IMG/VR virus record: IMGVR_UViG_3300045988_071562
Span: 1 to 64,000 of that record
Direction: 5' to 3' (one strand)
Length of the DNA stretch: 64,000 nt
Source: a virus
The notes under the pieces are model-generated. The model was not told the DNA's origin. It did not search any database and saw only the letters and a list, made by a program, of their open reading frames with translations. How positions within the stretch are numbered: the first letter of the stretch is position 1; every line of letters begins with the position of its first letter. This document shows positions 14,186-57,561 of the stretch, in pieces. The position numbers and the translations under genes are program-made.

Positions 14186-14194
14186 CTAATCTTA

Positions 14195-18011: not shown

Positions 18012-18023
18012 TACCGAAATTAA

Positions 18024-18320: not shown

Positions 18321-18406
18321 GATATTCCTCCCTGTGAAAAATGTTCCATTTTAAATCGAACCTTTCCAGACCTCATTTTAAATGCGGGCTGTCTAAAAAT
18401 TCAAAA

Positions 18407-19096: not shown

Positions 19097-19122
19097 TCTC
19101 CATTCCTCCTTATATTGATGGA

Positions 19123-19195
19123 TAAAATAAAAAGAGCCGCCAAGTAAGATAAAAATTCCTCAAAATCGAGAAATATTAATTTCTTCTTAGCGGCT
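19123..19195 (-). terminator. leader hairpin plus U-tract between the promoter and the antirepressor gene
   Basis: Read on the minus strand: GAGCCGCUAAG...CUUGGCGGCUC (11 bp, ~41-nt interior), then UUUUUAUUUU, then the SD. Confidence 0.4.
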
Positions 19196-19232
19196 CAAAA
19201 ATCAAGACCGTGTGTACTTCTTCATTGAAGAA

Positions 19233-19261
19233 ATTATACCACACAATCAGTCAAAAATCAA
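19233..19261 (-). promoter_or_regulatory. promoter TTGATT-17-TGgTATAAT
   Basis: The -35 (19261-19256) overlaps the tape-measure stop codon. The extended -10 ends at 19233. Confidence 0.55.
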
Positions 19262-22200
19262 TATGCCGGGGATGGTTTGAAACGGCTATCCGTATCATTC
19301 TGGGCTTTTGTTACTGCTTTTGCAATCTCGCTTCCATCCAGAATAATGCTGTTCATAATGTACTGCGGATTCTTGTTTCCGCTGTTCATACTCATTGCCA
19401 TTGCAACTCCTTGTGCTACTGCTTTTGCCATTTCTTCTTTTGTAAGTCCCATGCTTCCGTCTGAGCTGGAAACAATGCTGTCTGCGATCTTCTTCATTGT
19501 TCGTGGGTTTTCCAGTGGAAGAACGGCTTCAGAACCAGCTTCACCGATACCGATTACCTGTGCGCCATTAAAAAGACCACCTTTGGCGTACCAATTAGGC
19601 TTGTAAACTGGTGTAGAACTGGTTTTTCCACCTCCAAGATCATGTTTTCTCCACTTTGAAATATAATAAGTCAGAGTCGGTAAATGTACTTGTTTCATGC
19701 CATCAGCAAATGATTGAGCAGTTTCCCGACCAATTGATGTAAGATTAACATTAAATAGCCTTTTAATTTTATCCGAAATCCCAGACAAATTAGATTCTGT
19801 GTAGGTTTTCATTTTTCCAGTTTCCGTGTCAACTTTACCAGAAGCCTTTTCCCAAATCTGGTTTGTATTGATCAGAACGGAAGACCAATAGCTTTGAATA
19901 GTGGTCATAACCTTACCCATTATATCTTTGGTATCGGTGTCCATGGTTCCGAGAGCTGTCGATACAGCACTTGCAGAATTTCCCCAATTGGTTTTAGAGT
20001 TGGTTTCAACATCATCATTCGTGTTCTTTATCTTTGACCAAATGGAAGGCATTGTGCTTTCTGTTCTTTTTTTCATTCCAGCCATTGCAGTGCTTACGGC
20101 AGTATTGGCGAGACCAAAACCAGTTTTTGTCTTGGATGATACGGATTCGGATGCTGTTGCAACTGATTTGCTCATTGTTGATGAAGCTTTCGGAACATCT
20201 TCTGAAAAAGCTTTTATAACTTTTCTTGTGTCAATTCCCATCTCTGCCATTTTATCCATCAATGCTTGGAATGCGGCTCTAGCTGTTGCACCAGATAATT
20301 CTTGCTGTTGAAGGACAGTACTTAATTCATCAAACTGCGTTGGAGTGATTACTGCTTGATATGAAAGTCTTTCCAGTGCAGATTTCGCATTATCAAACTC
20401 AGTTCCCATTGTTCCAATGTATTCATTAATATTTCCGATATGGGAATTTGTAGAGGTATCGGATTCCTCCATTGCCTGTTTTAATGCTTGCTTAAATGTA
20501 TCGGAAGAAATTCCAAGATTTTCAAGTGATGTTTCTACAGTTTGGAGCTGTCCATCAAAATCAAATGCATTGTCTTTCACATTTTTCAAATCGCCACCAA
20601 GCCCAATAAATTTATCCCCAGAAACTCCAGTTTGGTCTTCAAGTATTTTCAAGGCTTTTCTGACAACTTCAAAATCGTTGAATGCGTCCGCTGTGGAATC
20701 TTTAAAGTCCATAGCTTTTTTTACTTGTCCAAGTCCTTCCATGACAAATGCGGTTGCGCCCAAATTGGTTGCGTATCCCCAAAATCCTTGGAATTGTCCA
20801 CCAGCTGTTTGTGCGACGTCACCAAGATTTTTTATCTTTTCAGCAAGGGTAGTAAATCCTCCATTTCCTGCGGATTCTGCCGCATCCCCTAAATCTTTTA
20901 TTGCTTCTTTTGCTCCACTCGTGCCATCTCCAAGGACATCTGCTAATTTTTCAGCAATGAGATCAGCATTTTCTTTGGCAATAATTTTTCCGCCAATGTG
21001 ATCAATAAGGTTCCATGCAAGTTCTCCAATTCCGCTTACTTTAAGAACATTTACGACAAGAAAGGCTTTTCCAAGAATATCAACAAGACTTCCAACAAGC
21101 GGATGGTCTTCTTTTATTCCATCCACCAATCCGTTAAAGGCACTTGATAAACCACCAAGAATCAAATCAGCCGCAGTACTAAGTATTTCGCCCCAAGGCA
21201 ACTCTCCTAAGAATGTTCCAACGCCTTGTCCAAACTCATAGAAAGTGTCTTTTGTAAGCGTATTTTTCAACGCCGTACACAGGTGAGATATGAAATCTCC
21301 AAGTGCTTGTCCATTTTCTTTCCAGTTTGTTTTTTTCAAGAAAGTAGAAATTCCCTCTGTGATATTATTAGTAAGTTCATCCCAGTTTACAGTTTTGGTA
21401 AACGCAGCCAAGCTTCTAAACGCTCCATTTAAAATTCCAGATAAAGAATCTGCAATATCCTTCATGGAAATTTTGGACACAGCGCCATTTAAAGCTTTTC
21501 CAAGTGAACTACCAAGCTTATCCCAACCAGTTACACCAGCGCCGTCCTCTTCTGACATACGTTTTACAAATCCAGATAGAATTTTCCAGGAAATCATAAA
21601 CTTATTTCCAAGCAATTCACCCAGATTAGTCCAGTTGATTTCATCCAGTGCGCCGATTAACCCATCACCAATATTTCTGCCGATTAATCCAAAATCAATA
21701 CCGCCATCACCAATAAGCTGATTAAGAGTATTTACAGCTGTGTTGATTCCCGTCCCGATAGTTCTTCCAAGCAAGTCAAAATCAAGTCTGGTATTTAATG
21801 AATTGAATGCTCTTGTAAATGCGTCTGTAAACTCAGTTATTTTCGGGGCAACATTTTTCCAGTTAATAACCTCATACACCTTGCTCATTCCGAGATTAAG
21901 CATATCGGCAATAGTAGTTCCTACACCCTCCCAGTCTTTCGCCAGGAATGCTTTTCTAATTTTGGAAGCCCATTTGTTAATAGGTGTTTCATCGACAGTC
22001 AAAACTTCGTCCAAGGAATCTTGTATTCCTGCAAAGCTATCAGCCAAATCGCCAAGTCCAGAACCAAGGCTTTTAGATGCAGTCCCGGAATCGTTTGAGT
22101 TATCAGCAAGCTGATTTAATTGGTCGAATGGTAATACAGAAAGTGCCTTTTTCAGCTTCTTTGCAGATGATGTAGCGTCATCCAATCCAGAAGAAGCATC

Positions 22201-24156
22201 ATCCACAGCCGTTTCAATTCCACCCAGATCAGATACAACATCACTAACACCAGTCTGTGAACCTTTAAGCTTCTTTCCCATCAATACATACATGAAGTTA
22301 CGGAACACATTCGCAGCTTGCATAAGCTTTGCCATGAGAGCGTTAAGTGCTTGAATAGCAGGAAGAATACCAGCAATCAAACCTTGCCCGATTACTGCGG
22401 AAAGCGACTGGAAATTCAGAGTGAGTAAACGAACCTGGTTTGCCCAGGTGCCGCTTGTCCTGGCGAAATCCCCTTGCACATCTCCTGTAACTGACATTAA
22501 ATAGTTGTATCGAAGAGCAACTTTTTCAGCTTGGGACATTGCGTTATAAGATGTTGTAATTCCCCTTGAAAGGGCATAAGCCTCCATATTTGCAACGGAT
22601 AAATTAATACCCAATTGTCTTAAAGGCTCAATTTCCCCGGAAATTCCAGCGCGTATTTTCTGAAAAGCAGTATCGGTATCAATGTTGTAAAATGATGCAA
22701 TATCCCCGGCTAATCCAGCAAGAGAAATTGACATTTTAGAAGCTGCATCTTGCGCAACACCAGATGATTTCATCATTGCCATCATGGTTCCAGAATATTG
22801 CTTTGCTGCCAATTCGGATAATCCAAATTGTTCTTTTGCCGTAGAAGCAAATTTATAAGCTTTATCAGACATGCTGCCAAACGCAACATCTACAACGTTT
22901 TCAACCTCTGTAATTTGAGAGCCTAAATCAACTGCGCTTCTTCCAAAGTCAACAATACCTTGGATTGCCTTAAATCCAATTGCAGTTTTAAAGAGTGCGC
23001 TCAGATTAAAGGATGCAGTTTTCAGTCCAGAGCTACCGCTTCCAAGACGCTGAAACCCACCAATGATAGTTTTTATGCCACCACCAATTTTAGAAGCAGT
23101 TTTACTTACAAGATTTCCAAGACTCAATGTACCAGATGATAACTTAGAAAAAGCACTGGATATGGAATTTGTTGCAGTATTCACCTTGCCGCCAGCACTT
23201 GCCAACTGCGCCAGTGCTTCCGTCATGCGGATGGTATTCTCACTGATTTTTGGAGCATTTTCCATTACTTTGAAAAACTTCTTTGTTTCTTGCGCCAGAT
23301 TTTGCAATTGTCCAGCGGTCTGGCTAGTCTTGTTTCCAGCACTTGCCAGTCTTCCGATGGATTGTACAAATAAATTAGTTGGTTCAGAAACATCACCAAC
23401 TCTGGATAGTGTTTTTATTACGGATTTTAATTGTTTTCCAAGCCCAGGAAGCGCAGCTTCCACCTGTCTTGCCTTATCACCAGCATTTACAAGTTTTTGC
23501 AAAGAAGAAACAAAACGGTTGGTGCTGGAAGATACATCTGGGAGATCAGAAAAGCTTTTCATGGAATTTGCAATTTTATCCAAAGTGGTTGTGTCAAAAT
23601 TATCCGTTTTGACTTCCATTAGCCTTTTGACTGCATTAATTCCTTGGATTACTTTTGAACCACTAAAATCAACAGTATTAAGAACAGACATAGAGTGTGC
23701 CACTTTCTGTATACTGTTAATTGTTTGCTGTGCATTTGAAGAATCAACTTTTCCAAGCTTTTCAATAGCTTTTGTTACTGAATTAATATTTTTAGCATCT
23801 ATTTTGGGTACAGAAATATTCTGTAAACCGCTGATAGACAATAAACCAGACGCAAAATCTTTAAGTGATTTCCCACTTCCATCCAATGCTGAAAAATTTA
23901 CACGTGATATGCTGGTGAGTTGCTTTGTAAGACCACCAAGATTAGGTAAGGAAACTCTAACACCATTTAATGTTTTTATGGATGCAGATACTCTTCCTAT
24001 TTCTCTGGCATAATGGCGCAATCCACCTGTATTCAGATTCTTAAATGAACTGTTTACGTTCAAAAGTTTTCTTGATAAGTTCTCAAGTGACCGAACAGCT
24101 TTTGCCGTACTACTTCTAACCTGTAAATCAAGGGTATCAATGGTGTTATCCGCCAT
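19258..24156 (-). CDS. tail tape measure protein
   Basis: ~1630 aa, alpha-helical and Ala/Ser/Gly-rich. It follows the G/GT chaperones. AGGAGGG SD before MADNTIDT. Confidence 0.9.
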   Translation of the reverse strand: MADNTIDTLDLQVRSSTAKAVRSLENLSRKLLNVNSSFKNLNTGGLRHYAREIGRVSASIKTLNGVRVSLPNLGGLTKQLTSISRVNFSALDGSGKSLKDFASGLLSISGLQNISVPKIDAKNINSVTKAIEKLGKVDSSNAQQTINSIQKVAHSMSVLNTVDFSGSKVIQGINAVKRLMEVKTDNFDTTTLDKIANSMKSFSDLPDVSSSTNRFVSSLQKLVNAGDKARQVEAALPGLGKQLKSVIKTLSRVGDVSEPTNLFVQSIGRLASAGNKTSQTAGQLQNLAQETKKFFKVMENAPKISENTIRMTEALAQLASAGGKVNTATNSISSAFSKLSSGTLSLGNLVSKTASKIGGGIKTIIGGFQRLGSGSSGLKTASFNLSALFKTAIGFKAIQGIVDFGRSAVDLGSQITEVENVVDVAFGSMSDKAYKFASTAKEQFGLSELAAKQYSGTMMAMMKSSGVAQDAASKMSISLAGLAGDIASFYNIDTDTAFQKIRAGISGEIEPLRQLGINLSVANMEAYALSRGITTSYNAMSQAEKVALRYNYLMSVTGDVQGDFARTSGTWANQVRLLTLNFQSLSAVIGQGLIAGILPAIQALNALMAKLMQAANVFRNFMYVLMGKKLKGSQTGVSDVVSDLGGIETAVDDASSGLDDATSSAKKLKKALSVLPFDQLNQLADNSNDSGTASKSLGSGLGDLADSFAGIQDSLDEVLTVDETPINKWASKIRKAFLAKDWEGVGTTIADMLNLGMSKVYEVINWKNVAPKITEFTDAFTRAFNSLNTRLDFDLLGRTIGTGINTAVNTLNQLIGDGGIDFGLIGRNIGDGLIGALDEINWTNLGELLGNKFMISWKILSGFVKRMSEEDGAGVTGWDKLGSSLGKALNGAVSKISMKDIADSLSGILNGAFRSLAAFTKTVNWDELTNNITEGISTFLKKTNWKENGQALGDFISHLCTALKNTLTKDTFYEFGQGVGTFLGELPWGEILSTAADLILGGLSSAFNGLVDGIKEDHPLVGSLVDILGKAFLVVNVLKVSGIGELAWNLIDHIGGKIIAKENADLIAEKLADVLGDGTSGAKEAIKDLGDAAESAGNGGFTTLAEKIKNLGDVAQTAGGQFQGFWGYATNLGATAFVMEGLGQVKKAMDFKDSTADAFNDFEVVRKALKILEDQTGVSGDKFIGLGGDLKNVKDNAFDFDGQLQTVETSLENLGISSDTFKQALKQAMEESDTSTNSHIGNINEYIGTMGTEFDNAKSALERLSYQAVITPTQFDELSTVLQQQELSGATARAAFQALMDKMAEMGIDTRKVIKAFSEDVPKASSTMSKSVATASESVSSKTKTGFGLANTAVSTAMAGMKKRTESTMPSIWSKIKNTNDDVETNSKTNWGNSASAVSTALGTMDTDTKDIMGKVMTTIQSYWSSVLINTNQIWEKASGKVDTETGKMKTYTESNLSGISDKIKRLFNVNLTSIGRETAQSFADGMKQVHLPTLTYYISKWRKHDLGGGKTSSTPVYKPNWYAKGGLFNGAQVIGIGEAGSEAVLPLENPRTMKKIADSIVSSSDGSMGLTKEEMAKAVAQGVAMAMSMNSGNKNPQYIMNSIILDGSEIAKAVTKAQNDTDSRFKPSPAY

Positions 24157-24203
24157 TTTCAATTTCCCTCCTTTTTGCATAAAAAAATAAAGGGCAGACA
24201 AGA

Positions 24204-24560
24204 CTAATCATCCTGCCTGCCCTCTTCGTTACCTATCTCGTCAAGTTTCGCATTTGCTTGTTTTACAAGAAGCTCAAAGTATCTTTCTTCTTGCTTTAAT
24301 TCCTCTTCTGTTTTTTCATCATAAATCTTTTCTGGAAGCAATTCTTTTTTATCATCACTTCCAAATGGCTTTTTGGGGTATGAAACCTTGGAAGAAAGTG
24401 CACTTGCTATAGCAATTTGAACATACGCACCAGAAACCCAGGATTGATAATCAATCAATTTGCTCTTCTGATTAATTTCATCTTCTTTTTGGTTTCTCCA
24501 AGCTTTTAATCGAAGTTGAAACTCTTTTATGGTGCAATGCAAAAAATCACGTTTACTCAT
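24204..24560 (-). CDS. tail assembly chaperone, T segment (expressed as a GT fusion)
   Basis: Lies in the -1 frame relative to 24599-25069. That frame stays open from the A6 run at 24614-24619 through to this ORF. Confidence 0.65.
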   Translation of the reverse strand: MSKRDFLHCTIKEFQLRLKAWRNQKEDEINQKSKLIDYQSWVSGAYVQIAIASALSSKVSYPKKPFGSDDKKELLPEKIYDEKTEEELKQEERYFELLVKQANAKLDEIGNEEGRQDD

Positions 24561-26029: not shown

Positions 26030-26431
26030 TTAAAGTAATTTTCCTGTATATATCCGGCTGTATCGACTCACAAGCTTTTTGATTCCACTGTCGCCAAAAA
26101 ACATAGGTTCCGGTCCGTATGTACGGCGGAATCCCATGCTCACCATAGTTTTGTGACTTATCTTGTCCAATTCATACAATCTGGTTAATGCTTTGCTCCC
26201 AGATGTGAAGCAATTTACTTGAAATGATGGTATTGTTGCACATTCATCTCCTTCAAGGTCACCTCTCGTAATTGGATTTCCAAGCATATAAAGCTGTGCA
26301 TATGCTTTTTTGTCAGAAGCATTTGTTTCGCTCCCGTCCATGGAATAATTGTCTGCGCCAGTAATCTTAGAAACAGCCTCTCCCCATTTTGAAAAAACTT
26401 CCAGTACAGGGGATTCTATTGTGTCTGGCAT
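26030..26431 (-). CDS. tail completion/terminator-like protein
   Basis: The SD-led start is at MPDTIESP. The upstream part of the track ORF is occupied by a terminator hairpin. Confidence 0.45.
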   Translation of the reverse strand: MPDTIESPVLEVFSKWGEAVSKITGADNYSMDGSETNASDKKAYAQLYMLGNPITRGDLEGDECATIPSFQVNCFTSGSKALTRLYELDKISHKTMVSMGFRRTYGPEPMFFGDSGIKKLVSRYSRIYTGKLL

Positions 26432-26445
26432 ATCTGTCACCTCAC

Positions 26446-26481
26446 AATAAAAAATGCGCCCACCTTTATGGTGAACGCATT
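26446..26481 (-). terminator. leader intrinsic terminator (late cassette copy B)
   Basis: Read on the minus strand: AAUGCGUUCACC-auaaa-GGUGGGCGCAUU (12 bp including 2 G-U pairs), then UUUUUAUU. Confidence 0.6.
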
Positions 26482-26509: not shown

Positions 26510-26555
26510 ATCATAACATAATTGGTTAGTATCATTCAGTATATTATGGTATCTT
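26510..26555 (-). promoter_or_regulatory. late-box copy B plus TGtTATGAT
   Basis: The box at 26528-26555 matches copies A and C at 25 of 28 positions. The -10 is at 26515-26510. Confidence 0.5.
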
Positions 26556-33100: not shown

Positions 33101-33340
33101 CTATGAATGCAAAGAAAAGCCCCGACAATACATCGGGGCAACTTTCATAATTTTCTTTTTTAATTTTCTATTTATGCGGTCTACAGTTCTTGTGCTGTAC
33201 CCCATGATTTCTGAAGCTTCTGCAAGTGTTTTTTCTTCGTAAACACGCAATCGGAATAACTCTTTTTCTCTGGAATCAAATCCAGCTTCACGCAAATAGA
33301 AGATTCTTTCATCTTCCGAAAAGTCTTTATAATTATCCAT
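33101..33340 (-). CDS. small sigma-70 region-4-like HTH protein
   Basis: SREKELFRLRVYEEKTLAEASEIMGYSTRTVDRINRKLKKKI. The start is placed at MDNYKDF. Confidence 0.55.
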   Translation of the reverse strand: MDNYKDFSEDERIFYLREAGFDSREKELFRLRVYEEKTLAEASEIMGYSTRTVDRINRKLKKKIMKVAPMYCRGFSLHS

Positions 33341-36551: not shown

Positions 36552-38048
36552 TCATTCTTCGTTAGATGGAGAATTTGCCATTGGTTCTGTTTTGGACGGA
36601 TTTTGAAACTTTCCGTCAAGTAATTGCTGTGCTTTCTGCATTTCCGCTTCTGGGTTTGCCAGTTCTGGATAAATTGTTCCAAGATAAGGAAGGCTCATTT
36701 CATAGACTTTCTGCGGATCACTAAATAAGCCGCAAGTAATCAGTGCGATAAGCGGATGAATTTTATTTTTGAACAGATAATCAAGCGCTTGTGCTTTTAC
36801 AAGCATATTGTCTGTTGGGTTTCTGGTTATCTTCACATCGAAATCTCGTGTTGAGATATTAACATCATTTGATGTGCCACGGATAATATTCAGAATAATT
36901 CTGGCAGATTCCTTTTCAGCTTCCTTGGTGAATGCTTCTACCAATTTTGCATCTCTCTCTGCAAAATCCCATCCATTACGAAGGTATACGGCATTTCCTG
37001 TATCCCCTCCGCTGTTGCTTTGACGGTTTGGCATTGCTTCCACAATCAGCATATTATTGTAGATATCATCCTTTGCAACCTGGCTTTCTGATTGATTTAG
37101 TTCAGCGGTCATCAGTTCAACATCCGACTGACATCCATTTCCGGTATCTTTAACAGAGATAGCACCAAGCTTTACCATTTTCAAAAACTCGTTTTCGTCT
37201 ACCTCGCAGTTTTTAAATTTCATAAAGGCTTGCACAAACTGTTCCACGCCATTTAATCTATCAGACTGATATTTGTTGATTGCATCGAATAAGGTGATTG
37301 CAATTTCAACATCCGAAAGTCTATCGTGATTATTCGGGCATTCAACAATAGGAATACCACCAAAACCATTGATGCCGTAATTGGTCACTTTTCCATTCTT
37401 GATTTCAAAAAACTGGTTCTTTGAATAACATAAATAATATTGCTGTTCATCTTCATCTTTTAAAATCTGTACGGAAAGCATTGCTTTCCCATTTCTCTGC
37501 GAATATACAATGTAACAATCACCTGGATATGGGATGAAAATTCTAAATGGAGGTAAATCTCCGTTTTTTGTCCAGTCCTCTTCTTTCAGAATAGCCTTAT
37601 AAGAAGTTCCTGTTGCGCTTTGGTATATTGCCCTCTGGATGTTTCTTGCATCTGCATTGGCTTCATCCAGATAATCATTCAGAAGGTCAACTTGCTCATT
37701 TATTTTTTTATCTGCTTTTTTCTTTTTGCATACATATTGGATTGGCTCCCCGCAAATTTGTCCAGCTTTAAATTTCACAGTTTCAAATGCGTGATTTTCA
37801 ACCACTCTGTTATTAACTTCTGGACGGACTATTTTATTTCGATATAATATTGGCTGATCGCCTTTCATGTACCGATACAAGTAATCAATCAATGTTCGGT
37901 TTCTATTATGTATACCAATTGTATCTGACACTACTTTTACTACATTTTGTGGAGTGATTCGGTCAACGCCTGTGTAGGCTACTTTTCGCCCGAACTCACC
38001 TCGGCATAAATCTACAAAATTCATTGTATTTCTCACGAGCCGAACCAT
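36552..38048 (-). CDS. portal protein (SPP1 gp6-like)
   Basis: ~500 aa next to TerL. The start is 38048 or 38024. The track N-terminal extension covers the late box and a terminator. Confidence 0.85.
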   Translation of the reverse strand: MVRLVRNTMNFVDLCRGEFGRKVAYTGVDRITPQNVVKVVSDTIGIHNRNRTLIDYLYRYMKGDQPILYRNKIVRPEVNNRVVENHAFETVKFKAGQICGEPIQYVCKKKKADKKINEQVDLLNDYLDEANADARNIQRAIYQSATGTSYKAILKEEDWTKNGDLPPFRIFIPYPGDCYIVYSQRNGKAMLSVQILKDEDEQQYYLCYSKNQFFEIKNGKVTNYGINGFGGIPIVECPNNHDRLSDVEIAITLFDAINKYQSDRLNGVEQFVQAFMKFKNCEVDENEFLKMVKLGAISVKDTGNGCQSDVELMTAELNQSESQVAKDDIYNNMLIVEAMPNRQSNSGGDTGNAVYLRNGWDFAERDAKLVEAFTKEAEKESARIILNIIRGTSNDVNISTRDFDVKITRNPTDNMLVKAQALDYLFKNKIHPLIALITCGLFSDPQKVYEMSLPYLGTIYPELANPEAEMQKAQQLLDGKFQNPSKTEPMANSPSNEE

Positions 38049-38057
38049 CCTTTCTGC

Positions 38058-38091
38058 AAAATAAAAAGCACTGGATATTTTAATCCAATGC
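38058..38091 (-). terminator. leader intrinsic terminator (late cassette copy A)
   Basis: Read on the minus strand: GCAUUGGA-uuaaaaua-UCCAGUGC, then UUUUUAUUUU. Confidence 0.55.
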
Positions 38092-38101
38092 TCTACTTTA
38101 T

Positions 38102-38146
38102 ATTTTACACATATTGGCGGTATCATTCAGTATATTTTGGTATCAT
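38102..38146 (-). promoter_or_regulatory. late-box copy A plus TAAAAT
   Basis: The box at 38119-38146 overlaps the stop of the DUF1492-like gene. The -10 is at 38107-38102. Confidence 0.5.
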
Positions 38147-38565
38147 CTTTCAAAACCTTTTATCTTTTTTACTTCTGCCAAAGCTTTTAAGTGTTTTTTC
38201 TTAATATGTATTTCAGAATATCCCATCTCGTCTGCGATACGAACCAATGATTTGTACTCAACATAGTGCTTAAATAGTATGTTGTACAGCAACGGGTCTT
38301 CAACCTGTTCTATGGTTCGAACTATTTCCTGTTTTTTTTGTAAAAATTCGGATATCATTTTTGAAATCTCTTCTCGCAGATCAAATATCTTTGCAACCAT
38401 ATCTCCCATTGGATCACGTTTTACAGAAGTTTGTACCTTTTCTCCAACAGGGATTGCAGATACACTTGTGGAAAGAGAACTGAGCTGTTCTTCTTCGATA
38501 AGCTTGTTTTTGATTCTGTTATCATAATTTTCAATTTGTCGTAAATATTGAGTTGCAGTCATCAT
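38143..38565 (-). CDS. DUF1492-family sigma-70 region-4-like protein (putative late transcription regulator)
   Basis: TQYLRQIENYDNRIKNKLIEEEQL...MGDMVAKIFDLREEISKMISEFLQKKQEIVRTIEQVEDPLLYNILFKHYVEYKSLVRIADEMGYSEIHIKKKHLKAL follows the DUF1492 pattern. Confidence 0.65.
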   Translation of the reverse strand: MMTATQYLRQIENYDNRIKNKLIEEEQLSSLSTSVSAIPVGEKVQTSVKRDPMGDMVAKIFDLREEISKMISEFLQKKQEIVRTIEQVEDPLLYNILFKHYVEYKSLVRIADEMGYSEIHIKKKHLKALAEVKKIKGFER

Positions 38566-38568: not shown

Positions 38569-40263
38569 TTATCTCCTTCCCCACATAAAATTTTTGGTTG
38601 CTTTTACTTCTGCAAATCTTTTTCCAGCAAGTGTTATTGCAAGCTGTGTAACTCCATCTGCGGCGTCATCATGCTCATTATCGCCAATATATACAAAGGT
38701 CGTTAATTCATCCATGGCCTTTTGATACTGCTTGTCTTGATATTTTGGAGCCAAAAATATGAAATTCTGCTTAACATCCCCGGAATACTGATTTATTTTT
38801 TCTTTTTTTGCTTGTTTTGAAGGCGCTTTTGTACTGGTCGTGCTGCAAGCGTATTTATGTTCTTTCAACCGTTCATTTACATAATAGGCATACATATCTC
38901 CACCATTATTTGCTTCAAAATTGATGGATTGAATATTATTACCCATGATTCTTCCAACAACTAATGGCAATGTTCCTTCTTTTGGTGCCGTGCTGAAAAT
39001 CCAGTCATAAATATACACATCTCCATTTTCGTATTCTGCGCCCACTGGCATTGATAAGCTATCACCACCACCCCACGCAACATCACAGGCAGAAACATTT
39101 TTAACAAATCCCCCTTCTGGAAGAACGCCGTTATAATATCTCAATTCATCAGCTGCAAACACAATTCCTTCACGTAAGAAGGGCTTTTGCTGATATTTGG
39201 CTTCCCATTCGTTAGCGTCTAACCTGGCTTTCATATCGACATAATATTTTGTTGAAAATCCAACGCCATACTCATAATCGAAATTCGATTTACCTTCATC
39301 ATTCAAAGCTGGAATTTTTCTAAACCGATACATTGGATTATCGTGATTTAGCTTCTCGATTTTTCCAAGAGGGTCATATAAATTCCATCTAGTTCCAACC
39401 ATAAGTTCCCTTGCGCCATCAATCTTACGGTCAACCATCTTATTCAGATATTCTTGATATGTATTTTCTAATCGGGTAGGACTTAATGAATGTTGCCTAT
39501 CTCTTACAAGATCATCCACATACAAATAACCATCGGAAGAAATATCAACGGCACCCGTCCAAGTTCCTTCAATACCACGGCAAGTCATTGTTGCAAATCT
39601 ATCTGGTTTGTCCAGGTTTATTTCAAAATCATCAGCACTTTGTTTTTGAAGTTTCGACTGTGGAAAAATTTCATTGTAGTTGTATTCCTGTGTATTAATG
39701 AGATTAAGAAGTTCTCCGTAAAATCCTTTTGCCAGTTTTCCAGAATGACCGCCCATTGCACTATGACTATTCGGTCTTTTACCCATTATCCAAGACATAA
39801 AGAAAATACACATAGTAGATTTTCCAACACGGCTTGGAAGCGATAAACCGTAAAACTCTATCTTTCTTTCTTCCAAATCTTGTAGGTCTTGGGCTACCAC
39901 ATGTAGTGTTTTTCTTCTTGGAATATAAAATTTCTTGCTGTCCGGTCTATTCTTTTCCATATAAAGCAAGTAACTTTCAAATAAATGTGGTGCTTCCAGT
40001 AACAAATACTGCCAGTATATATCGTCAAAGTCACCACTACCAGTTAATGCAGCACACTTCTCTGCTATGTTATGTGAGTATTGACTTACTTTCATAGCCA
40101 TTTTCCGTGCTTCTTGGTTCTTGTCGAAAGGAAGGTCAATATTCATATTTAAGAGCAAATCAAGGCAATCTTTTTGGTTCTGATAGATTGTCATATCACT
40201 ATTGATAATTTGATTCAGTACTGCCCGATACCATTCGAGCGAGCCTTCTGTAATTTTTGACAT
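38569..40263 (-). CDS. terL: terminase large subunit
   Basis: Walker A LPSRVGKST, Walker B-like YLYVDDLV, and a C-terminal nuclease-type region. Confidence 0.9.
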   Translation of the reverse strand: MSKITEGSLEWYRAVLNQIINSDMTIYQNQKDCLDLLLNMNIDLPFDKNQEARKMAMKVSQYSHNIAEKCAALTGSGDFDDIYWQYLLLEAPHLFESYLLYMEKNRPDSKKFYIPRRKTLHVVAQDLQDLEERKIEFYGLSLPSRVGKSTMCIFFMSWIMGKRPNSHSAMGGHSGKLAKGFYGELLNLINTQEYNYNEIFPQSKLQKQSADDFEINLDKPDRFATMTCRGIEGTWTGAVDISSDGYLYVDDLVRDRQHSLSPTRLENTYQEYLNKMVDRKIDGARELMVGTRWNLYDPLGKIEKLNHDNPMYRFRKIPALNDEGKSNFDYEYGVGFSTKYYVDMKARLDANEWEAKYQQKPFLREGIVFAADELRYYNGVLPEGGFVKNVSACDVAWGGGDSLSMPVGAEYENGDVYIYDWIFSTAPKEGTLPLVVGRIMGNNIQSINFEANNGGDMYAYYVNERLKEHKYACSTTSTKAPSKQAKKEKINQYSGDVKQNFIFLAPKYQDKQYQKAMDELTTFVYIGDNEHDDAADGVTQLAITLAGKRFAEVKATKNFMWGRR

Positions 40264-40329: not shown

Positions 40330-41532
40330 TTATTCACTTGCTTTAAAGTTATATATAGGTTTGATAATATCAATTATTTCTACGGTATCTTTGATGTTAT
40401 CAATAATTTCTTGCGGTGTTTTGTAAGCCATAGGGCTTTCATCAATTGTAGATTTATGAACGGATGTTGTATATATTCCATCCATAGACTCCTTAAATTC
40501 TTCTAACGAAATGTTTTCTTTTGCTTTTGACCGGCTCATAATACGTCCTGCGCCATGCGGGGCTGAACAGTTCCAATCCTCGTTTCCTTTCCCGACTGCA
40601 ATAATGCATCCGTCTCGCATATTCATGGGGATAAGAACTTTTTCACCATACTTAGCTGATATCGCACCTTTCCGAACAATATTTGTATCGTGGTCAATAT
40701 AATTATGAATTGTGTCAAACCATGTATTTCTTTGAAGCGTCCAATTCATGCTGTAGAATATAGCCGACTGTATACACCGTCTGTTTATTCTTGCAAATTC
40801 TTGACAGATTTTCATATCATGCAGATATTGTTTTCTGTGTTCTCCTGTCAAGTAGCACAATTCTTTCGGAATGTCAAGTTTGTCTGGCTTCCATTTTCGT
40901 TTTAATTCGTCAATACCATTTTGAATTTCCTTGTGCCTGCCAGAGCACTTGTATTCTTTTATTAATTTCTGTATTTCAGTTTCAAGTTTATCTGTGCTCC
41001 GCATATCTTCTATGGCAATTTTTTGATATATTTCAGCTACTTGCTTCCCAAGGTTGCGACTTCCAGTATGAATTACAAGGTATTTTGCACCTTTTGAATT
41101 GGTGTCAACTTCAATAAAATGATTTCCACCCCCAAGTGTACCAAGGCTCCTGCGAATCCATTCGATATTTTTAAGCTGATGAAAGCAGTGAAGTTCTTCT
41201 AATTCTTCAAAATTTATGATTTCGTCACGTACATTTCTTCCTGCTGGAACATTGTTTCTTATTACTTCGTCAAGTTTTTTTAAATCTATTGTTCCCACAT
41301 CGGTAGGAATTTGTGTTGTAAGCATTCCACATCCAATGTCCACGCCAACAATGTTTGGAATTACTTTATCTCCGAGATCAGCAGTAAAGCCAATTACACA
41401 TCCTGCTCCTGCGTGAACATCTGGCATGATTCGTACTTTGCATTCAGAAAATGCAGGCTGTTTTATCAATGCATAAATCTGATTTAATGCTTCTGGTTCG
41501 ATATTTTCTGTAAATATCTTCAAGTCACTCAT
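40330..41532 (-). CDS. rtcB: RNA ligase RtcB
   Basis: 400 aa with GCGM, NHFIE, HTGSRNLG and APHGAGR motifs characteristic of RtcB. Confidence 0.9.
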   Translation of the reverse strand: MSDLKIFTENIEPEALNQIYALIKQPAFSECKVRIMPDVHAGAGCVIGFTADLGDKVIPNIVGVDIGCGMLTTQIPTDVGTIDLKKLDEVIRNNVPAGRNVRDEIINFEELEELHCFHQLKNIEWIRRSLGTLGGGNHFIEVDTNSKGAKYLVIHTGSRNLGKQVAEIYQKIAIEDMRSTDKLETEIQKLIKEYKCSGRHKEIQNGIDELKRKWKPDKLDIPKELCYLTGEHRKQYLHDMKICQEFARINRRCIQSAIFYSMNWTLQRNTWFDTIHNYIDHDTNIVRKGAISAKYGEKVLIPMNMRDGCIIAVGKGNEDWNCSAPHGAGRIMSRSKAKENISLEEFKESMDGIYTTSVHKSTIDESPMAYKTPQEIIDNIKDTVEIIDIIKPIYNFKASE

Positions 41533-44464: not shown

Positions 44465-44536
44465 TAGAAACAACAGGAATCGAACCTGTGTCACATGATA
44501 TTGGATATCATTGCTCTACCACTGAGCTATGTTTCT
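44465..44536 (-). tRNA. tRNA-Trp (anticodon CCA)
   Basis: Cloverleaf read by eye: AGAAACA/TGTTTCT acceptor, GCTC-AGTGGTA-GAGC, ATGAT-ATCCAAT-ATCAT, ACAGG-TTCGATT-CCTGT. No encoded CCA. Confidence 0.85.
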
Positions 44537-44758
44537 TTTTCATCCTCAAACGCTAAACAAGATGATTTTTTTAGAATCCCCGACTATCACTCCTCACGGG
44601 CATTGGTCTTATCTCTCTAAAAAGTTTTTGCACAAGATCGCTAGTGAGTTGCGTCTATATGCCTGCACGAACGCACACAAACAAATCCGCATTTATGTGC
44701 AAGAACTAACAATAGCTATGCTAAAGTCAGATTTCCTATCTACACTTGGTAGATAGAA

Positions 44759-44830
44759 TTGCAGGAGACGGATTCGAACCGCCGTTTCCATGGATATGAG
44801 CCATGTGAGATTCCACTTCTCTATCCTGCA
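44759..44830 (-). tRNA. tRNA with anticodon CAT (Met or lysidine-Ile2)
   Basis: TGCAGGA/TCCTGCA acceptor, GAGA-AGTGGAA-TCTC, CATGG-CTCATAT-CCATG, GGCGG-TTCGAAT-CCGTC. Confidence 0.8.
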
Positions 44831-45178
44831 AGAACCCGGAAGAACCGGGTTAGCAATAGGTTTATCGTGTTATGCTTTCCACTATCCAGTTTTCTTTATT
44901 TGCGGCACGCATACTGGCAACCCTAGCGGCTTTTTGATAACCGTGGTATGCTCCACGAGTATTTTTATGCACAACTTTAATGGCTTATGGTTCGCATCTT
45001 TTGAAAACTCCTTTAATCAGCGTGCGCTGCGCTGATTTCTTTAACTCCAAGATGCATTCCAGCTGGGAAACCAGATCCATTTAGGCTACGCCGTATCGCA
45101 CCTATAATTTACCTGATCCACACGCTCAACTGGAAGTTTTTTCCACACATATTACGGATGAATGGCATTTAGAAGAAA

Positions 45179-45251
45179 TGGAAACTCTGGGATTCGAACC
45201 CAGGACTTACGGCTTATGAGGCCGTTGCTCTTACCGCTGAACTAAGCTTCC
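45179..45251 (-). tRNA. tRNA with anticodon CAT (Met or lysidine-Ile2)
   Basis: GGAAGCT/AGTTTCC acceptor (one G-U pair), GTTC-AGCGGTAA-GAGC, ACGGC-CTCATAA-GCCGT, CTGGG-TTCGAAT-CCCAG. Confidence 0.8.
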
Positions 45252-45465
45252 TGAGATACCAGTTGGCAATACTGGTAACCAAACTGGCACTGTTACAGTT
45301 CTTAACCACCAACTATAACAAAGGTTTTCTGAAATACTCCTGATACTTCAGATACGCCTTCCGGGATATTTGAAGTCCCTTTAATCAGTCTCAGTTAGAC
45401 TAGAAGGCTAGAGGTGTTTCTTATGAAAAAAAAGAATATTTTTGCAGCATATTAACTACTGCAAA

Positions 45466-45537
45466 CTGGGCTAGTTGGATTTGAACCAACGAATTGTGGA
45501 GTCAAATTCCACGGCCTTACCACTTGGCGATAGCCCA
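45466..45537 (-). tRNA. tRNA-Gln (anticodon TTG)
   Basis: U1-A72 and G73 as in bacterial tRNA-Gln. GTGGA-ATTTGAC-TCCAC, GTTGG-TTCAAAT-CCAAC. Confidence 0.8.
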
Positions 45538-47200: not shown

Positions 47201-47668
47201 TCAACTTACAATTTCAATTGGATATCCTAAATATGCTTCCAACTCTGAAACAGTCAGTTTGCGTGGTTTCTTTATTTCAACATCAACACGCTGTATGATA
47301 TTGTCTGTTGTCTTTGCGATTGCCTTTCCGGTATAACTTTCAAGCTCTTCGTTTGCATATACATTCAAATGTTCATATCCATATGCCCGGCACCATCTTG
47401 CAGCTGAATCAACAATTTTTCTTAGCTCTTCTTGCTCATCACCAAACAACTCCGAATATCTAACCGCCTTGTTGGGGTCGTTCAAACTTACTCCGCAAGA
47501 AGCCACAACATGTTTATATGGACTTCCAATAAAATGAAAATATCTATTCGATTCCATTGCTTTTTGGCCTTTTGGCAAGTTGAACCCTTGAGCTATTGCT
47601 TTTTTAAGCAACTGTTCTGATTCAACATTGTTTTCTGTAATAATGCATTTGTTTGTAAAATCAATCAT
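47201..47668 (-). CDS. hypothetical protein
   Basis: 155-aa ORF overlapping the recombinase stop. Confidence 0.5.
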   Translation of the reverse strand: MIDFTNKCIITENNVESEQLLKKAIAQGFNLPKGQKAMESNRYFHFIGSPYKHVVASCGVSLNDPNKAVRYSELFGDEQEELRKIVDSAARWCRAYGYEHLNVYANEELESYTGKAIAKTTDNIIQRVDVEIKKPRKLTVSELEAYLGYPIEIVS

Positions 47669-48251
47669 CTTTATCCCCCTCTAAAAGTTTATATAGCGTG
47701 CTTCTTGAAACTCCCATAATCTCGGCAAATTGTACCTTTGTTATTTCCCCTCTTTGCCAGCTACGTTTGGTTTCTTTGAAAAGTTCCTTATCTATCTCTT
47801 TTTTGGCGCGGCCTTTATATTTGCCTTGCGTTTTTGCTATTTCAATACCTTCTTTTTGACGCTTCCGAATGTTTTCTCTCTCTCTTTGGGCTACATATGA
47901 AAAAAGCTGCAATACAATGTCTGTAATTAAGGTTCCTGTTAAGTCTTTATCCTGGCATGTGTTAAGAAGCGGCATGTCCTGTACGATAATATCGGCTCCG
48001 ATTTCTTTTGTGATACATCTCCACTGTTCAACAATTTCATTGTAGTTTCTTCCAAGACGGTCAATTGAATGGATTACCAATATATCGTCTTTTGTTAGCT
48101 CTGAAATCATTCTCTGGTACTCTGGACGATTGAAGTCTTTCCCAGATTTTTTATCCATATAAATTTTTTCAACACCATCTGCTTTCATTGCTTCAATCTG
48201 TCTCGCTTCGTTCTGATCTGCTGTTGAAACTCTTACATATCCTATCTTCAT
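47661..48251 (-). CDS. small serine recombinase (resolvase/invertase family)
   Basis: MKIGYVRVSTADQNEARQ catalytic Ser motif. 196 aa with a C-terminal HTH (GVSRSTLYKLL). Confidence 0.9.
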   Translation of the reverse strand: MKIGYVRVSTADQNEARQIEAMKADGVEKIYMDKKSGKDFNRPEYQRMISELTKDDILVIHSIDRLGRNYNEIVEQWRCITKEIGADIIVQDMPLLNTCQDKDLTGTLITDIVLQLFSYVAQRERENIRKRQKEGIEIAKTQGKYKGRAKKEIDKELFKETKRSWQRGEITKVQFAEIMGVSRSTLYKLLEGDKDD

Positions 48252-49206: not shown

Positions 49207-49902
49207 TTATAATTCCGGTTTTTCCATCTCTGGAAGCTGCAAAGCTGCTTTGTGTTTCTCTGCAATCTCTGCGGCGGTTCGCCTTGGCTTTCCGCTGTTC
49301 TCGTCTGCGCCTCTTCCGTTTGGAGCGTTCCAACCATATTGAGTATTGAGTTTCATCGCAACGCCTGTATTATTCCTGTCGCTAATTCCAATGTTAGACA
49401 AAGAGTGTTCGTCCATTAATCTAATTTTTTTCACTAGGTCAAGGTGTGCAGTGCTTGCAATCTCCCTATATTCGCCCCTATTATTTAACTTCCATTCCTG
49501 TATATCCTTTATTACATTACCGTCTATATCTATATATATCTTTGATTTATAATCACCATTTAACCAATTATACATAGTCTGTTCACTTATTTTTATATAC
49601 CTACTAAACCCTTGTATATTAACCTCTTTGTTATATGTTTTGCAAATTTGCTCATATCTATCTAAAATATAATCAATAAGTGGCGCATTGTCAGAATCTA
49701 TAATGGTTTTTCTGTTATATTTTAAAGTCACATTATCTGGCTTTAAAAATATGTGATCTCCAGCGTAAGACATGGCAGCCTCAAAAGTATTTTGCGGTGC
49801 TTTGGATAAATCATCAATCTTGTATCTATTGCAAAAAGCAAGCAAATAGCTTTCTGTTTCTTCTTCAAAATTTTCTAAAATATTCTCTGTTGATCTCACC
49901 AT
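49207..49902 (-). CDS. terminase small subunit-like protein
   Basis: HTH-like FSRYIKISEQTMYNWLNG with a basic/acidic C-terminus. The assignment is tentative. Confidence 0.45.
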   Translation of the reverse strand: MVRSTENILENFEEETESYLLAFCNRYKIDDLSKAPQNTFEAAMSYAGDHIFLKPDNVTLKYNRKTIIDSDNAPLIDYILDRYEQICKTYNKEVNIQGFSRYIKISEQTMYNWLNGDYKSKIYIDIDGNVIKDIQEWKLNNRGEYREIASTAHLDLVKKIRLMDEHSLSNIGISDRNNTGVAMKLNTQYGWNAPNGRGADENSGKPRRTAAEIAEKHKAALQLPEMEKPEL

Positions 49903-49932
49903 GTCTCGCCTCACTTTAACACGTTAATTTGT

Positions 49933-55767: not shown

Positions 55768-57480
55768 TTATAGTGCTAAAAGGTACTTATATTTGAAAAA
55801 TACCATATCTTGTGTCTTAATGCAAGTTTTCCTACTAAATATATTGTGTTGTTCTGAATGTAGAGTTAAAATCATATCGTCAGAACAACGCAAAGGAAAT
55901 CCCCATTTTTCAAGGTTTCCAGACCTCAATTGAAATGTTAGTGTTGCACATGTAGCCGCCAACGGTTCCACGGTAATTTTTTCAAAAAGTTCATTGATAA
56001 TCTGCCTGTTAATGTCTTTTGGAGTAACGCCCTTAAACTTTTCTAACTGTTCTTTAATAGCACTTAATTGTATTTCTACTGGCTCTGGACTTTTGGTATT
56101 TTGGATTTCTAGAATATGGCTCTCAATCTGCTTTATCTGCTTCACGTATTCTTTATTTCTTGAAATAAATTCATCATCAGATATTTTTCCGTCCAGATTA
56201 TATTCCAGTATTTTTTCACGTTTTTGTTTTAATAGATCAATCTGTTTTTTAAGTCGTGAGATTTCGTTTTTATTGTCTGGAATGTTTTTGATCGAGGACT
56301 GCAAAATTTCAAAATATTCCTCCAAAATGCTATCAATGTTTTCAGAAGATTTATTTATTAATTCTGCGATTACTTCTTTCAGTTCTGATTCTGCCAGTCC
56401 AAATGAATCACATGAAGCTGCTCCGTTTTTTATCTTATAACTACATACCCATCGAACATCTTCTTTTCCTCGAATATAATGTTGCTTCATCCAGTATGGT
56501 GCTCCGTCGTTAGCACAGAAAAGTTTTCCAGTGAAAATATTTTCACTCTTAAAAGAGGTTTTTCTTGATTTTATAGCTTCTCCGCGCTCCCTTAAATACG
56601 CATTTGCTTTTTCCCAAGTAATCTCGTCAATAATCTGCGGTACTCTGGAACCATCGTCTTTAAACATTACCCATTCTGACTGCGGAAGAAATTCCTGCTT
56701 TTTTGTGAACATATCAACGATCTTGACTTTTCCTCCGCAATAGTATCCTTTGTATTTTGGATTCCGAATAATATTTTTTATGACATCTCTACTGATCTTA
56801 CCGCCTTTGAAACTTCTATATCCCATATTCCAGAGTTTTTTTTCGATTCTTGGTGTAGACATTCCAGAAGCATAGTCTCGAAAGACCATTCGAACCATAT
56901 CTGCTTCTTCCGGTATTAGCTCAAGTTTTCCTTGATGATTTGAGTATCCATACATTCTGTGTCCAAGTACAACACCGTTTTTAATTGACTGTGCATGTCC
57001 AAATTTTATTCTTGAAGATAATTTTCTGATTTCGTCCTGTGCTACTCCAGCCATAATTGTTAGCCTAAGTTCACTATCTTCATCAATGGTATTGATTCCG
57101 TCATTTTGGAACCACACGCACACACCGTAAGACAACAATTCTCTGGTATATTGGATACTATCAAGAGTGTTTCTTGCAAATCTTGAAATTTCTTTTGTGA
57201 TAATCATATCAATTTTTCCAAGTTTTGCATCTCTGAGCATTCTTTGAAATTCTTCTCTTTTATCTGCGTGCATTCCAGAAATACCATCATCAATGTAAGA
57301 ACCTGCAAACTTCCATCTGTTGTTAGAATGTATCAGTTCTTCAAAATGTTCTTCCTGATGTTTGATGGATGCTTGCTGCTCAAGTTTTTCCGTTGAAACC
57401 CTGGCATAATAAGCAACATTTAATTCAATGTCGTAAATAGAGCAACTTCTTAATTTTTCTCTGACATAATAAATATTCAT
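55768..57480 (-). CDS. large serine recombinase (phage integrase type)
   Basis: YARVSTEKLEQ catalytic motif in a resolvase domain, then recombinase and zinc-ribbon-like regions and a coiled coil. 570 aa from the SD-led MNIYYV. Confidence 0.9.
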   Translation of the reverse strand: MNIYYVREKLRSCSIYDIELNVAYYARVSTEKLEQQASIKHQEEHFEELIHSNNRWKFAGSYIDDGISGMHADKREEFQRMLRDAKLGKIDMIITKEISRFARNTLDSIQYTRELLSYGVCVWFQNDGINTIDEDSELRLTIMAGVAQDEIRKLSSRIKFGHAQSIKNGVVLGHRMYGYSNHQGKLELIPEEADMVRMVFRDYASGMSTPRIEKKLWNMGYRSFKGGKISRDVIKNIIRNPKYKGYYCGGKVKIVDMFTKKQEFLPQSEWVMFKDDGSRVPQIIDEITWEKANAYLRERGEAIKSRKTSFKSENIFTGKLFCANDGAPYWMKQHYIRGKEDVRWVCSYKIKNGAASCDSFGLAESELKEVIAELINKSSENIDSILEEYFEILQSSIKNIPDNKNEISRLKKQIDLLKQKREKILEYNLDGKISDDEFISRNKEYVKQIKQIESHILEIQNTKSPEPVEIQLSAIKEQLEKFKGVTPKDINRQIINELFEKITVEPLAATCATLTFQLRSGNLEKWGFPLRCSDDMILTLHSEQHNIFSRKTCIKTQDMVFFKYKYLLAL

Positions 57481-57561
57481 AGTGCATTTCTCCCTCAATA
57501 AACAGGGAGTGGAATCATATAAAGTATAACACCTCACATAACTCCACTCAATACATTTTCG

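Follow-up and report, generated by a model that had tools for sequence, protein, structure and literature searches.

The first 64,000 nucleotides (nt) of the IMG/VR virus record IMGVR_UViG_3300045988_071562, hereafter the window, hold a temperate gut phage in which a 28-nt box, a -10 element and a leader terminator recur together three times, in cassettes that we call A, C and B in the order of transcription. All genes in the part of the window that holds the cassettes lie on the minus strand. We consider it probable that the three cassettes are late promoters dependent on the phage's own DUF1492 protein, which belongs among the RinA/Ltr regulators, and that RNA polymerase started by this protein is resistant to the terminator it then meets. 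The anatomy of the cassettes, their conservation and the co-variation of repeats and protein are directly observed. Binding of the repeats and promoter activation are proposed by analogy with better known Ltr systems, and the resistance to termination is something that we infer. The boxes and the regulator gene are placed as follows.

38119-38146, minus strand: box A, direct repeats TGATACC / ATATAC / TGATACC, the proposed Ltr operator
10885-10912, minus strand: box B, same sequence as box A
26528-26555, minus strand: box C, AAGATACCATAATATACTGAATGATACT, ahead of the homologous gene in 80/80 protein-anchored loci
38143-38565, minus strand: ltr, gene for a predicted 140-amino-acid DUF1492 (LtrB/RinA-family) regulator, between terL (38569-40263) and the portal gene

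Read on the minus strand, the box is ATGATACCAAAATATACTGAATGATACC, with 28 of 28 positions identical in copies A and B and 25 of 28 shared by copy C. These matches had been reported in a first-pass annotation of the window and are borne out by our sequence scan; in 100 dinucleotide-preserving shuffles there was no match to the box with three or fewer mismatches. Even a looser three-repeat pattern found only sites A, B and C in the whole window. The same annotation described the box as two TGATACC half-sites 20 nt apart. It is better described as three tandem units of 10 base pairs (bp), TGATACCnnn / kATACTGAA / TGATACy, of which the middle one is degenerate in this phage (ATATAC) and reads TGATAC in relatives with a 70% identical protein. 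It is because those relatives have TTGATACCTTTTGATACTGAATGATACT in the box position that we take the box to be three direct repeats phased at 10 bp. If the -10 hexamer is numbered -12 to -7, the repeat centres fall near -27, -37 and -47. The ltr gene ends with the TGA of box A's first repeat, an overlap that the annotation had rightly noticed, and the first repeat of box B holds the stop codon of a 37-codon open reading frame (ORF; 10909-11022), which overlaps and is coupled to an HNH gene (11019-11378).

Each box is followed by a recognisable promoter element:

38102-38107, minus strand: -10 hexamer A, TAAAAT after TGTG, 11 nt past box A
10867-10875, minus strand: extended -10 of promoter B, TGTTATAAT, with the hexamer TATAAT at 10872-10867, 12 nt past box B
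26510-26518, minus strand: extended -10 of promoter C, TGTTATGAT, with the hexamer TATGAT at 26515-26510, 12 nt past box C

The -10-like hexamers at 11-12 nt from every copy of the box, lacking a partner at -35, are thus as first described: no TTGACA-like hexamer is present at -35 in cassettes A, B or C, and the promoters of copies B and C have the canonical TGn extension. The conservation of this element was assessed in 42 distinct leaders from three specificity groups of phages (see below), aligned on the TA...T hexamer found 10-13 nt past the last repeat. The hexamer of the resulting logo is TATAnT and the positions that were not anchored by the alignment read T-R-T-G-n, with T at -3 in 38/42 leaders and G at -2 in 34/42, giving an extended -10 consensus of TRTGnTATAAT. 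TRTGn corresponds to the extended -10 known from sigma-A promoters of Gram-positive bacteria, the "-16 region", for which a 1998 study by Voskuil and Chambliss is reportedly the source. Since the spacing from repeats to extended -10 is constant, at 11-13 nt from the last repeat, that -10 is tied to the repeats; and since it is of the sigma-A type, the DUF1492 protein would act together with the primary sigma factor of the host and take over the role of the -35 element. Second TAnnnT-like hexamers, candidates for a sigma-dependent promoter-proximal pause element like that of Q systems, can be seen after the -10 in cassettes A, B, C, A' and B', in a region that is AT-rich, but their spacing is variable and none is conserved in the logo.

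Between each -10 and the Shine-Dalgarno sequence of the next gene lies an intrinsic terminator, again as the first-pass annotation had it, with folding energies of -16.8 to -17.9 kcal/mol for the main hairpins and a U-run in each case. The z-scores given here compare folding energy with that of shuffled sequences.

38055-38094, minus strand: leader terminator A, 12-bp stem (38094-38065) then UUUUUAUUUU; -17.6 kcal/mol, z = -5.5
10803-10842, minus strand: leader terminator B1, 13-bp stem (10842-10813) then U6; -16.8 kcal/mol, z = -4.6
10767-10801, minus strand: terminator B2, tandem and weaker, AGGACAA/UUGUCCU then U6; -10.4 kcal/mol, z = -2.2
26443-26481, minus strand: leader terminator C, 12-bp stem (26481-26453) then U6; -17.9 kcal/mol, z = -5.4

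In each cassette the next gene, with its ribosome-binding site, begins a few bases on: terminator A ends 4 nt before the portal Shine-Dalgarno sequence and its stem is kept, with changes, in relatives, while terminator C is followed directly by GAGGTG and the ATG at 26431. The stems contain G.U pairs and the leader terminators are therefore specific to the minus strand. Terminators B1 and C are homologous to each other, differing by GC to AU and CG to UA double changes with hardly any broken pairs; terminator B2 is found in some relatives only. The frequency of leader terminators was assessed by searching for a hairpin of -11 kcal/mol or better with a U-run within 170 nt. By this measure one is present in 17/18 distinct leaders of the TGATAC group, which includes the window, in 6/6 genuine leaders of the AATCATAT group and in about 35/39 leaders of the ATGTCATA group that have a -10, making about 90% of distinct cassettes overall, as compared with 6.5% of random 170-nt segments of the same strands. 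The distance from -10 to terminator varies from 25 to 105 nt, so that the hairpin is not a fixed structure of the RNA 5' end. Folding of the leaders revealed no competing antiterminator structure, and no Rfam family matched the cassettes. A riboswitch or an alternative antiterminator fold was rejected on these grounds. A further hairpin precedes the terminator in cassette C; it takes in the -10, and the changes within it do not compensate one another.

Terminators are also found without a box in the window, at 33139, 30231 and 24223, inside the late region. Their presence there is the one indirect indication that a resistance to termination, if conferred, would be processive. The last of these (24191-24223, minus strand) is a very strong hairpin of about -23.6 kcal/mol followed by AU7, placed exactly where the tail chaperone gene gives way to the tape-measure gene, and no box lies close to it; from its position, everything down to cassette B depends on its read-through.

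The first-pass annotation had suggested that the box be looked for in related phages, and it does occur there at homologous positions. Scanning IMG/VR with a degenerate box pattern retrieved at least 119 loci, mostly in contigs of 40-85 kilobases (kb). Among the matches listed, several contigs have two or three boxes, and the cassette types represented are, rare variants apart, the three of the window. When relatives were instead anchored on the DUF1492 protein, the box was found at the same position, overlapping the ltr stop codon, in 12/12. An unbiased sample was obtained by anchoring 80 loci, with 35 unique sequences, on the protein encoded downstream of cassette C, and all of them (80/80) have the box. 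Invariant in the 35 unique sequences are GATAC, TATACTGAATGATAC, the TG motif and TA..AT, variation being concentrated in the spacers. As far as sequence comparison goes, this confirms that selection acts on the repeats.

Moreover, the repeats change with the protein. Phages whose protein is 70-100% identical to that of the window have the repeat TGATAC, those at 51% identity have AATCATAT and those at 44% have ATGTCATA; the spacing is 10 nt and the first repeat reaches the stop codon in all three groups. One contig of the AATCATAT group has that repeat at both of its cassettes (L155 and L177), before the portal gene and before a tail-region gene, although the two differ in their -10 regions and in their terminators. 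The ATGTCATA repeat is seen in many phage contigs of 35-60 kb, always at the end of a DUF1492-like gene, and in the one contig of this group that was examined (L252) the gene order is terL-DUF1492-portal. This co-variation over three groups, common to the cassettes of one genome, suggests that repeats and regulator form cognate pairs.

Two rare variants depart from the usual cassette layout. One consists of chimeric A/B cassettes behind the HNH gene (L015, L034, L043 and L047), where a box with the -10 and terminator of type A is followed, after about 45 nt, by a B-type leader and terminator without a box of their own. Such chimeras indicate recombination between cassettes within the phage population. 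The other is a fourth cassette type (L039, 7762-8070, and L117) with a box and TGTTATATT, no terminator and a divergent upstream gene. This is the only TGATAC-group cassette without a terminator, and it drives a 58-residue helix-turn-helix protein and small membrane proteins. The coincidence of a missing terminator with a divergent upstream gene suggests that the terminator's job is to stop co-directional read-in, and the presence in L039 of box and -10 without terminator suggests that box and -10 are a functional unit by themselves.

The ltr product matches the Pfam DUF1492 entry at 26.2 bits (cut-off 21.5) and PHROG 36, "transcriptional regulator", at 1.5e-19. The AlphaFold2 model, built with 114 homologues (predicted local distance difference test score, pLDDT, 92), shows a C-terminal domain of three helices, preceded by a hairpin of two antiparallel helices (residues 10-35 and 52-86). 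With Foldseek, this modelled C-terminal domain is matched to region 4 of SigF, SigD, SigR and sigma-E with root-mean-square deviations of 1.1-2.4 A; a profile search of solved structures gives sigma region 4 only, and the neighbours in the viral structure library BFVD are further phage proteins, assigned to DUF1492 or to "sigma-70 region 4". The calculated isoelectric point is 8.7 for the whole protein and 9.3 for its C-terminal part. RinA of phage 80alpha, also of 140 residues, matches Pfam DUF1492 too. Judged by sequence and predicted fold, then, the protein is a small basic member of the Ltr superfamily, of the LtrB/RinA type. The DUF1492 family is large, with 3,486 representatives at 50% identity (E-values up to 0.001). 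Neither a relative of the window protein nor the box was found in 185,579 representative genomes, and the only match in an annotated phage collection is a 5.7-kb human faecal fragment, itself without annotation.

The cassettes had originally been read as activator- or alternative-sigma-dependent late promoters. Dependence on an activator stands, and both the co-variation and the fixed extended -10 make the DUF1492 protein the likely factor; the alternative sigma does not. That reading also had the transcripts needing antitermination, which would follow from the geometry of the cassettes. An autonomous sigma factor can be rejected since the protein has no region 2, only the helical hairpin and region 4, and the -10 is of sigma-A type. 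Membership of the antiterminator family Q was also considered and rejected. Matches to PF06530 (19.2 bits against a cut-off of 26, E = 1e-3) and PHROG 79 (2.7e-5) are below threshold and involve the helix-turn-helix only, as does the comparison with the QuuD family, in which 45 helix-turn-helix columns align at 50% probability; there is no similarity to HK97 Q, and searches of PDB and BFVD gave no Q fold.

Nor had the box been recognised at first from any described system. In fact DUF1492 is family III (LtrB) of the Ltr (late transcriptional regulator) superfamily of Gram-positive phages (RinA, ArpU, LtrA, LtrB, LtrC), made up of small basic proteins (Quiles-Puchalt 2013, PMC3753634), and what is new is this box sequence only. 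Each Ltr protein binds direct repeats that lie just beyond the end of the gene encoding it, the repeats being necessary and sufficient for specificity, and the Ltr intergenic region holds a terminator: read-through from an upstream Pcad promoter is absent without the regulator (PMC3753634). The window resembles these systems in having a small basic regulator with a sigma-region-4-like C-terminus, repeats at or just after the regulator's stop codon, a TATA-type -10 without -35, and a terminator that separates the regulator gene from the first late gene. Unlike classical Ltr systems, it has its regulator gene between terL and the portal gene rather than upstream of terS, and three operator-promoter cassettes in place of a single late promoter and a single late transcript. 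In the literature that we found, the terminator is taken as the end of the ltr unit and its position downstream of the promoter is not discussed, nor are several dispersed late promoters under one Ltr protein described.

The Staphylococcus phage phi13, whose regulator is of the LtrC family, has the same order of elements. Its repeats extend from -107 to -42, and its late promoter depends on a TATA box at -15 to -5 and gives no signal in the absence of the phage (PMC13123087, 2026). Three and a half 18-bp repeats, as against the 10-bp units of the window, run across the ltr stop codon, with TATAAT at locus positions 2055-2060 and the published TSS23 at about 2067, a position that we converted from the -107/-42 coordinates of PMC13123087. 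A hairpin, GAACUCUCAC/GUGAGGGUUU, with U5AU5 then occupies +26 to +59, ahead of the Shine-Dalgarno sequence and the first late ORF, and this leader segment folds at -14.5 kcal/mol (z = -3.5). A reporter carrying the promoter to +50 is silent without phage and needs both repeats and Ltr (PMC13123087), from which it follows that Ltr is required for initiation there. Read from the coordinates, the end of this reporter falls inside the U-run and leaves most of it out.

In the staphylococcal phage 80alpha (L373, 4222-4408), the two RinA repeats TTGGCAGT and GTGGCAGT follow the rinA stop codon with an 11-nt period, and TAAAAT comes 10 nt later, the same repeat-to--10 geometry as in the window. The terminator is about 115 nt past the rinA stop, the mapped 5' end lies just after it and a -10-like TAAAAA is present inside the U/A run. 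At PL of the Lactococcus phage TP901-1, the Alt repeats are at -76 to -32, as quoted in PMC3152322; here too repeats are upstream of an extended -10 (TGaTATACT) without a -35. The leader is about 480 nt long, with a hairpin and U-run just before the terS Shine-Dalgarno sequence. Unlike the window, TP901-1 has one promoter, and Alt belongs to DUF722, not DUF1492. From the layouts of phi13, 80alpha and TP901-1, the order of promoter then terminator is not peculiar to the window. No paper treating RinA, Ltr, ArpU or Alt as antiterminators emerged from our literature search.

Among unrelated regulators, Mu C, P2 Ogr and P4 delta each exemplify one phage activator serving several dispersed late promoters without a good -35, as is proposed for the window. 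They differ in being zinc-finger or C-type proteins of phages with Gram-negative hosts, acting at inverted repeats or single sites, with no terminator built into the leader. T4 AsiA/MotA, gp39 of Thermus phage P23-45 and p7 of Xp10 redirect host polymerase to phage promoters that lack a -35 or have an extended -10. Both gp39 and p7 also suppress termination, an earlier instance of a single small protein serving the two purposes, but neither binds DNA repeats as the window protein would. Lambda Q, Xp10 p7 and P23-45 gp39 act at the beta-flap, by the RNA exit channel. With the lambdoid Q systems (PR'-tR'), and with the Q21-like BrrG of the Bartonella gene transfer agent (bioRxiv 10.1101/2024.11.20.624540), the window shares a regulator-specific DNA element located at the late promoter, a terminator separating that promoter from the late genes, -10-like hexamers in the early transcribed region and a regulator gene immediately upstream. 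Unlike the lambdoid arrangement, the window has a protein outside the Q family, promoters without a -35 and several cassettes per genome, and the related phi13 needs its regulator for initiation.

The mechanism that we propose would run as follows. The DUF1492 protein, made from the upstream terL-ltr transcription unit, would bind the three repeats on one face of the DNA, probably as an oligomer and through its sigma-region-4-like helix-turn-helix, and would replace -35 recognition for host sigma-A polymerase held by the extended -10, TRTGnTATAAT. Late transcription would in this way be restarted after blocks of non-structural genes, by cassette A for the portal and head genes, by cassette C for the tail and by cassette B, following an 8-kb accessory (moron) block, for the distal tail and lysis genes. 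The terminator, 25-105 nt past the -10 and directly before the Shine-Dalgarno sequence of the first gene, would stop transcription arriving from co-directional genes upstream, while polymerase started by Ltr would be made resistant to its own leader terminator, the logic of lambda Q carried out by an unrelated protein. Such resistance is probable because the portal, tail and distal tail/lysis transcripts must all cross a strong terminator, and two of them in cassette B. The simplest candidate for conferring it may be Ltr itself, whose region-4-like domain would be expected at the beta-flap, beside the RNA exit channel.

A reading without antitermination, to which we attach an appreciable if minority probability, is that Ltr only initiates, and that partial terminators block read-through from upstream and attenuate the promoter. 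Phage late operons often have internal terminators that tune stoichiometry, and the three box-less terminators of the window's late region could be of this kind; in L039 a divergent upstream gene goes together with the absence of a terminator, as an insulator role would have it, and the fold searches gave nothing like an antiterminator. Yet the leader terminators are strong (stems of 12-13 bp, -17 kcal/mol, U5-6), and in cassette B two of them stand in tandem ahead of essential genes. Furthermore, an insulator could as well sit upstream of the promoter, as at 33.1 kb, whereas it is downstream in about 90% of distinct cassettes, in all three groups and in phi13. Pure Q-type control seems unlikely. 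Here the extended -10 promoters would be constitutive, producing short terminated RNAs of about 40-70 nt, and the DUF1492 protein would only load onto the early elongation complex. In its favour, an extended -10 is well established to be sufficient for some promoters in the absence of a -35; the terminator keeps its place after the promoter across the cassettes, many of which have -10-like hexamers within their initially transcribed region; and there are the weak profile matches to PF06530 and PHROG 79. Published Ltr reporter fusions that contain the terminator do not separate initiation from antitermination. However, the +50 reporter of phi13, with most of the U-run gone, is still silent without phage and needs repeats and Ltr, the box would be useless in the terminator-less cassette of L039, and the similarity to Q is confined to the 45 helix-turn-helix columns, with no Q structure among the Foldseek matches.

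It is quite improbable that the true late starts lie beyond the terminators, with the box acting at a distance and the hexamer next to it not being a promoter. This arrangement is suggested by 80alpha, where the 5' end is just after the U-run and more than 155 bp from the RinA site (PMC3152322), and by the hexamers TATTTT and TATAGT in or after the U-runs of cassettes A and B respectively. At cassette C, the Shine-Dalgarno sequence comes 6 nt or less past the U-run and there is thus no room for a post-terminator promoter with a usable leader. The fixed distance of TRTGn from the repeats in 42 leaders, where that of the terminator ranges over 25-105 nt, argues in the same direction, as do the start site and TATA-box mutation of phi13, which put the promoter directly after the repeats. 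A promoter downstream of the terminators was excluded for cassette C and judged unlikely for short B variants, and is retained as a rival for the sake of the 80alpha data. A start within the 5' arm of the terminator, which would keep a cassette's own transcripts from folding it, was also considered; it is barely conceivable for cassette A and was rejected for B and C, where the hairpin begins 20-35 nt past the expected start. There is, lastly, a very small probability that the box is bound by some other factor, such as the product of 33101-33340 or a host protein, or that it is mainly a recombination boundary without a regulatory role. The phage does have a second small regulator, the sequences upstream of cassette B differ between relatives and the chimeric A/B cassettes indicate recombination at the box. 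The second regulator, however, has its own repeats (ATGGCGT, 11-nt period) after its own stop codon, and the box overlaps the DUF1492 stop in every lineage examined and changes with that protein. A mere boundary would leave the conservation of an extended -10 at a fixed distance unexplained.

That second regulator, encoded by a gene for 79 residues at 33101-33340 (minus strand), matches Pfam Sigma70_r4 at 29 bits. Directly after its stop come the three repeats (33098-33070), a -10-like TTGTAAAATATACT and the ATG of the next gene at 33011, while its terminator (33139-33119) precedes the repeats and falls within the last part of the ORF. In relatives, gene and terminator are retained along with repeats of GGCG type at an 11-nt period. 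The protein may be a second-tier Ltr-like regulator, making the late program a cascade.

Several points weigh against our proposed explanation of the three cassettes. The position of the second regulator's terminator, before its repeats, means that the promoter-then-terminator order is not obligatory. At cassette A, the link between box type and ltr allele could arise in part from physical linkage. The leader terminators may be no more than leaky when set against a strong promoter. The fold matches of the modelled protein in PDB and BFVD include no Q structure, and the protein thus shows no Q-like fold. In 80alpha, the RinA-dependent 5' end is 24 nt before terS and past the terminator, at a distance of more than 155 bp from the RinA site, and the authors of that work considered the mechanism to be more complex than direct contact (Ferrer 2011, PMC3152322). 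Given their -10-like hexamers, cassettes A and B could have a similar start in or after the U-run.

More generally, we advance as a tentative proposal, and one with less than an even chance of being right, that RinA/Ltr proteins are promoter-loaded antiterminators, which recruit polymerase and enable it to read through the leader terminator while polymerase from upstream is stopped. The same could hold for phi13 and possibly for 80alpha, in which the distance of the mapped start from the RinA site has posed a puzzle since 2011. In staphylococci, streptococci and enterococci, Ltr/RinA regulators govern the packaging of phages, lysis and virulence gene transfer, and the family is also present in a very large set of human-gut phages. 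The conserved promoter-then-terminator layout has been left unexplained by published work. The window suggests that one Ltr regulator can run distributed late promoters and so restart transcription past insertions of accessory genes. The operator sequences of the three specificity groups should help both in the annotation of late promoters of metagenomic phages and in the design of orthogonal expression switches. If Ltr-started polymerase is indeed terminator-resistant, the textbook division between Gram-positive activators and lambdoid antiterminators would need revising: here would be a Gram-positive functional analogue of lambda Q, of a different fold and reused along one genome.

Each of the cassettes heads a structural block and comes after non-structural genes or genes of unknown function. 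The principal genes of these blocks are:

36552-38036, minus strand: portal gene (SPP1 Gp6-like; Pfam SPP1_portal, 5e-71), first of the cassette A head block, with start codon GTG 38036
26030-26431, minus strand: 133-amino-acid gene of unknown function, first after cassette C
6471-10709, minus strand: distal tail block, with a DUF6711 gene (10344-10709) and the gene for a 1289-amino-acid tail protein (6471-10340)
3363-4169: amidase endolysin gene, among the lysis genes

The portal start agrees with relatives. Along the minus strand, the order begins with tRNA genes, RtcB, TerL (38569-40263), the DUF1492 gene and cassette A, and continues with portal, scaffold, decoration and capsid genes and further genes up to cassette C. 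There follow the 133-amino-acid gene, a holin-like gene, the tail chaperone genes, the tape-measure gene (19258-24201) and the 8-kb accessory block, and then cassette B with the DUF6711 gene, the tail protein gene and the lysis genes.

The accessory block (11000-19260, minus strand) splits the tail module between the tape-measure and DUF6711 genes. It contains three Ant/BRO antirepressor-like genes, a lipoprotein/Sie-like gene and the HNH gene, and has canonical sigma-70-type promoters. Its content varies among close relatives (loci L010-L126) and at least six different sequences abut box B, making the box a recombination boundary.

Four tRNA genes (Trp, Met, Met and Gln; 44465-45537, minus strand) are found a few kb upstream of the RtcB RNA ligase gene (40330-41532), and share with it, terL and ltr a transcription unit. 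They could form, together with RtcB, a tRNA supply-and-repair module directed against host anticodon nucleases. Further upstream, 8-10 kb from terL, are the genes for a small recombinase of the resolvase type and for a weak GP3_package match, small-terminase-like (47661-48251 / 49207-49914). A large serine recombinase (55768-57537) adjoins host-like genes (DUF4317, radical SAM), a junction that probably marks the prophage end. Near the lysis end, the structured RNA FuFi-1 of Rfam (RF02986), of unknown function, is matched over its full length at 1089-1276 (plus strand) with 138.6 bits. Finally, arrays with a 12-nt period occur at 17562-17723, in the accessory block, and at 59143-59280, in the host-like flank; they are 61-78% similar and make up repeat family D1.

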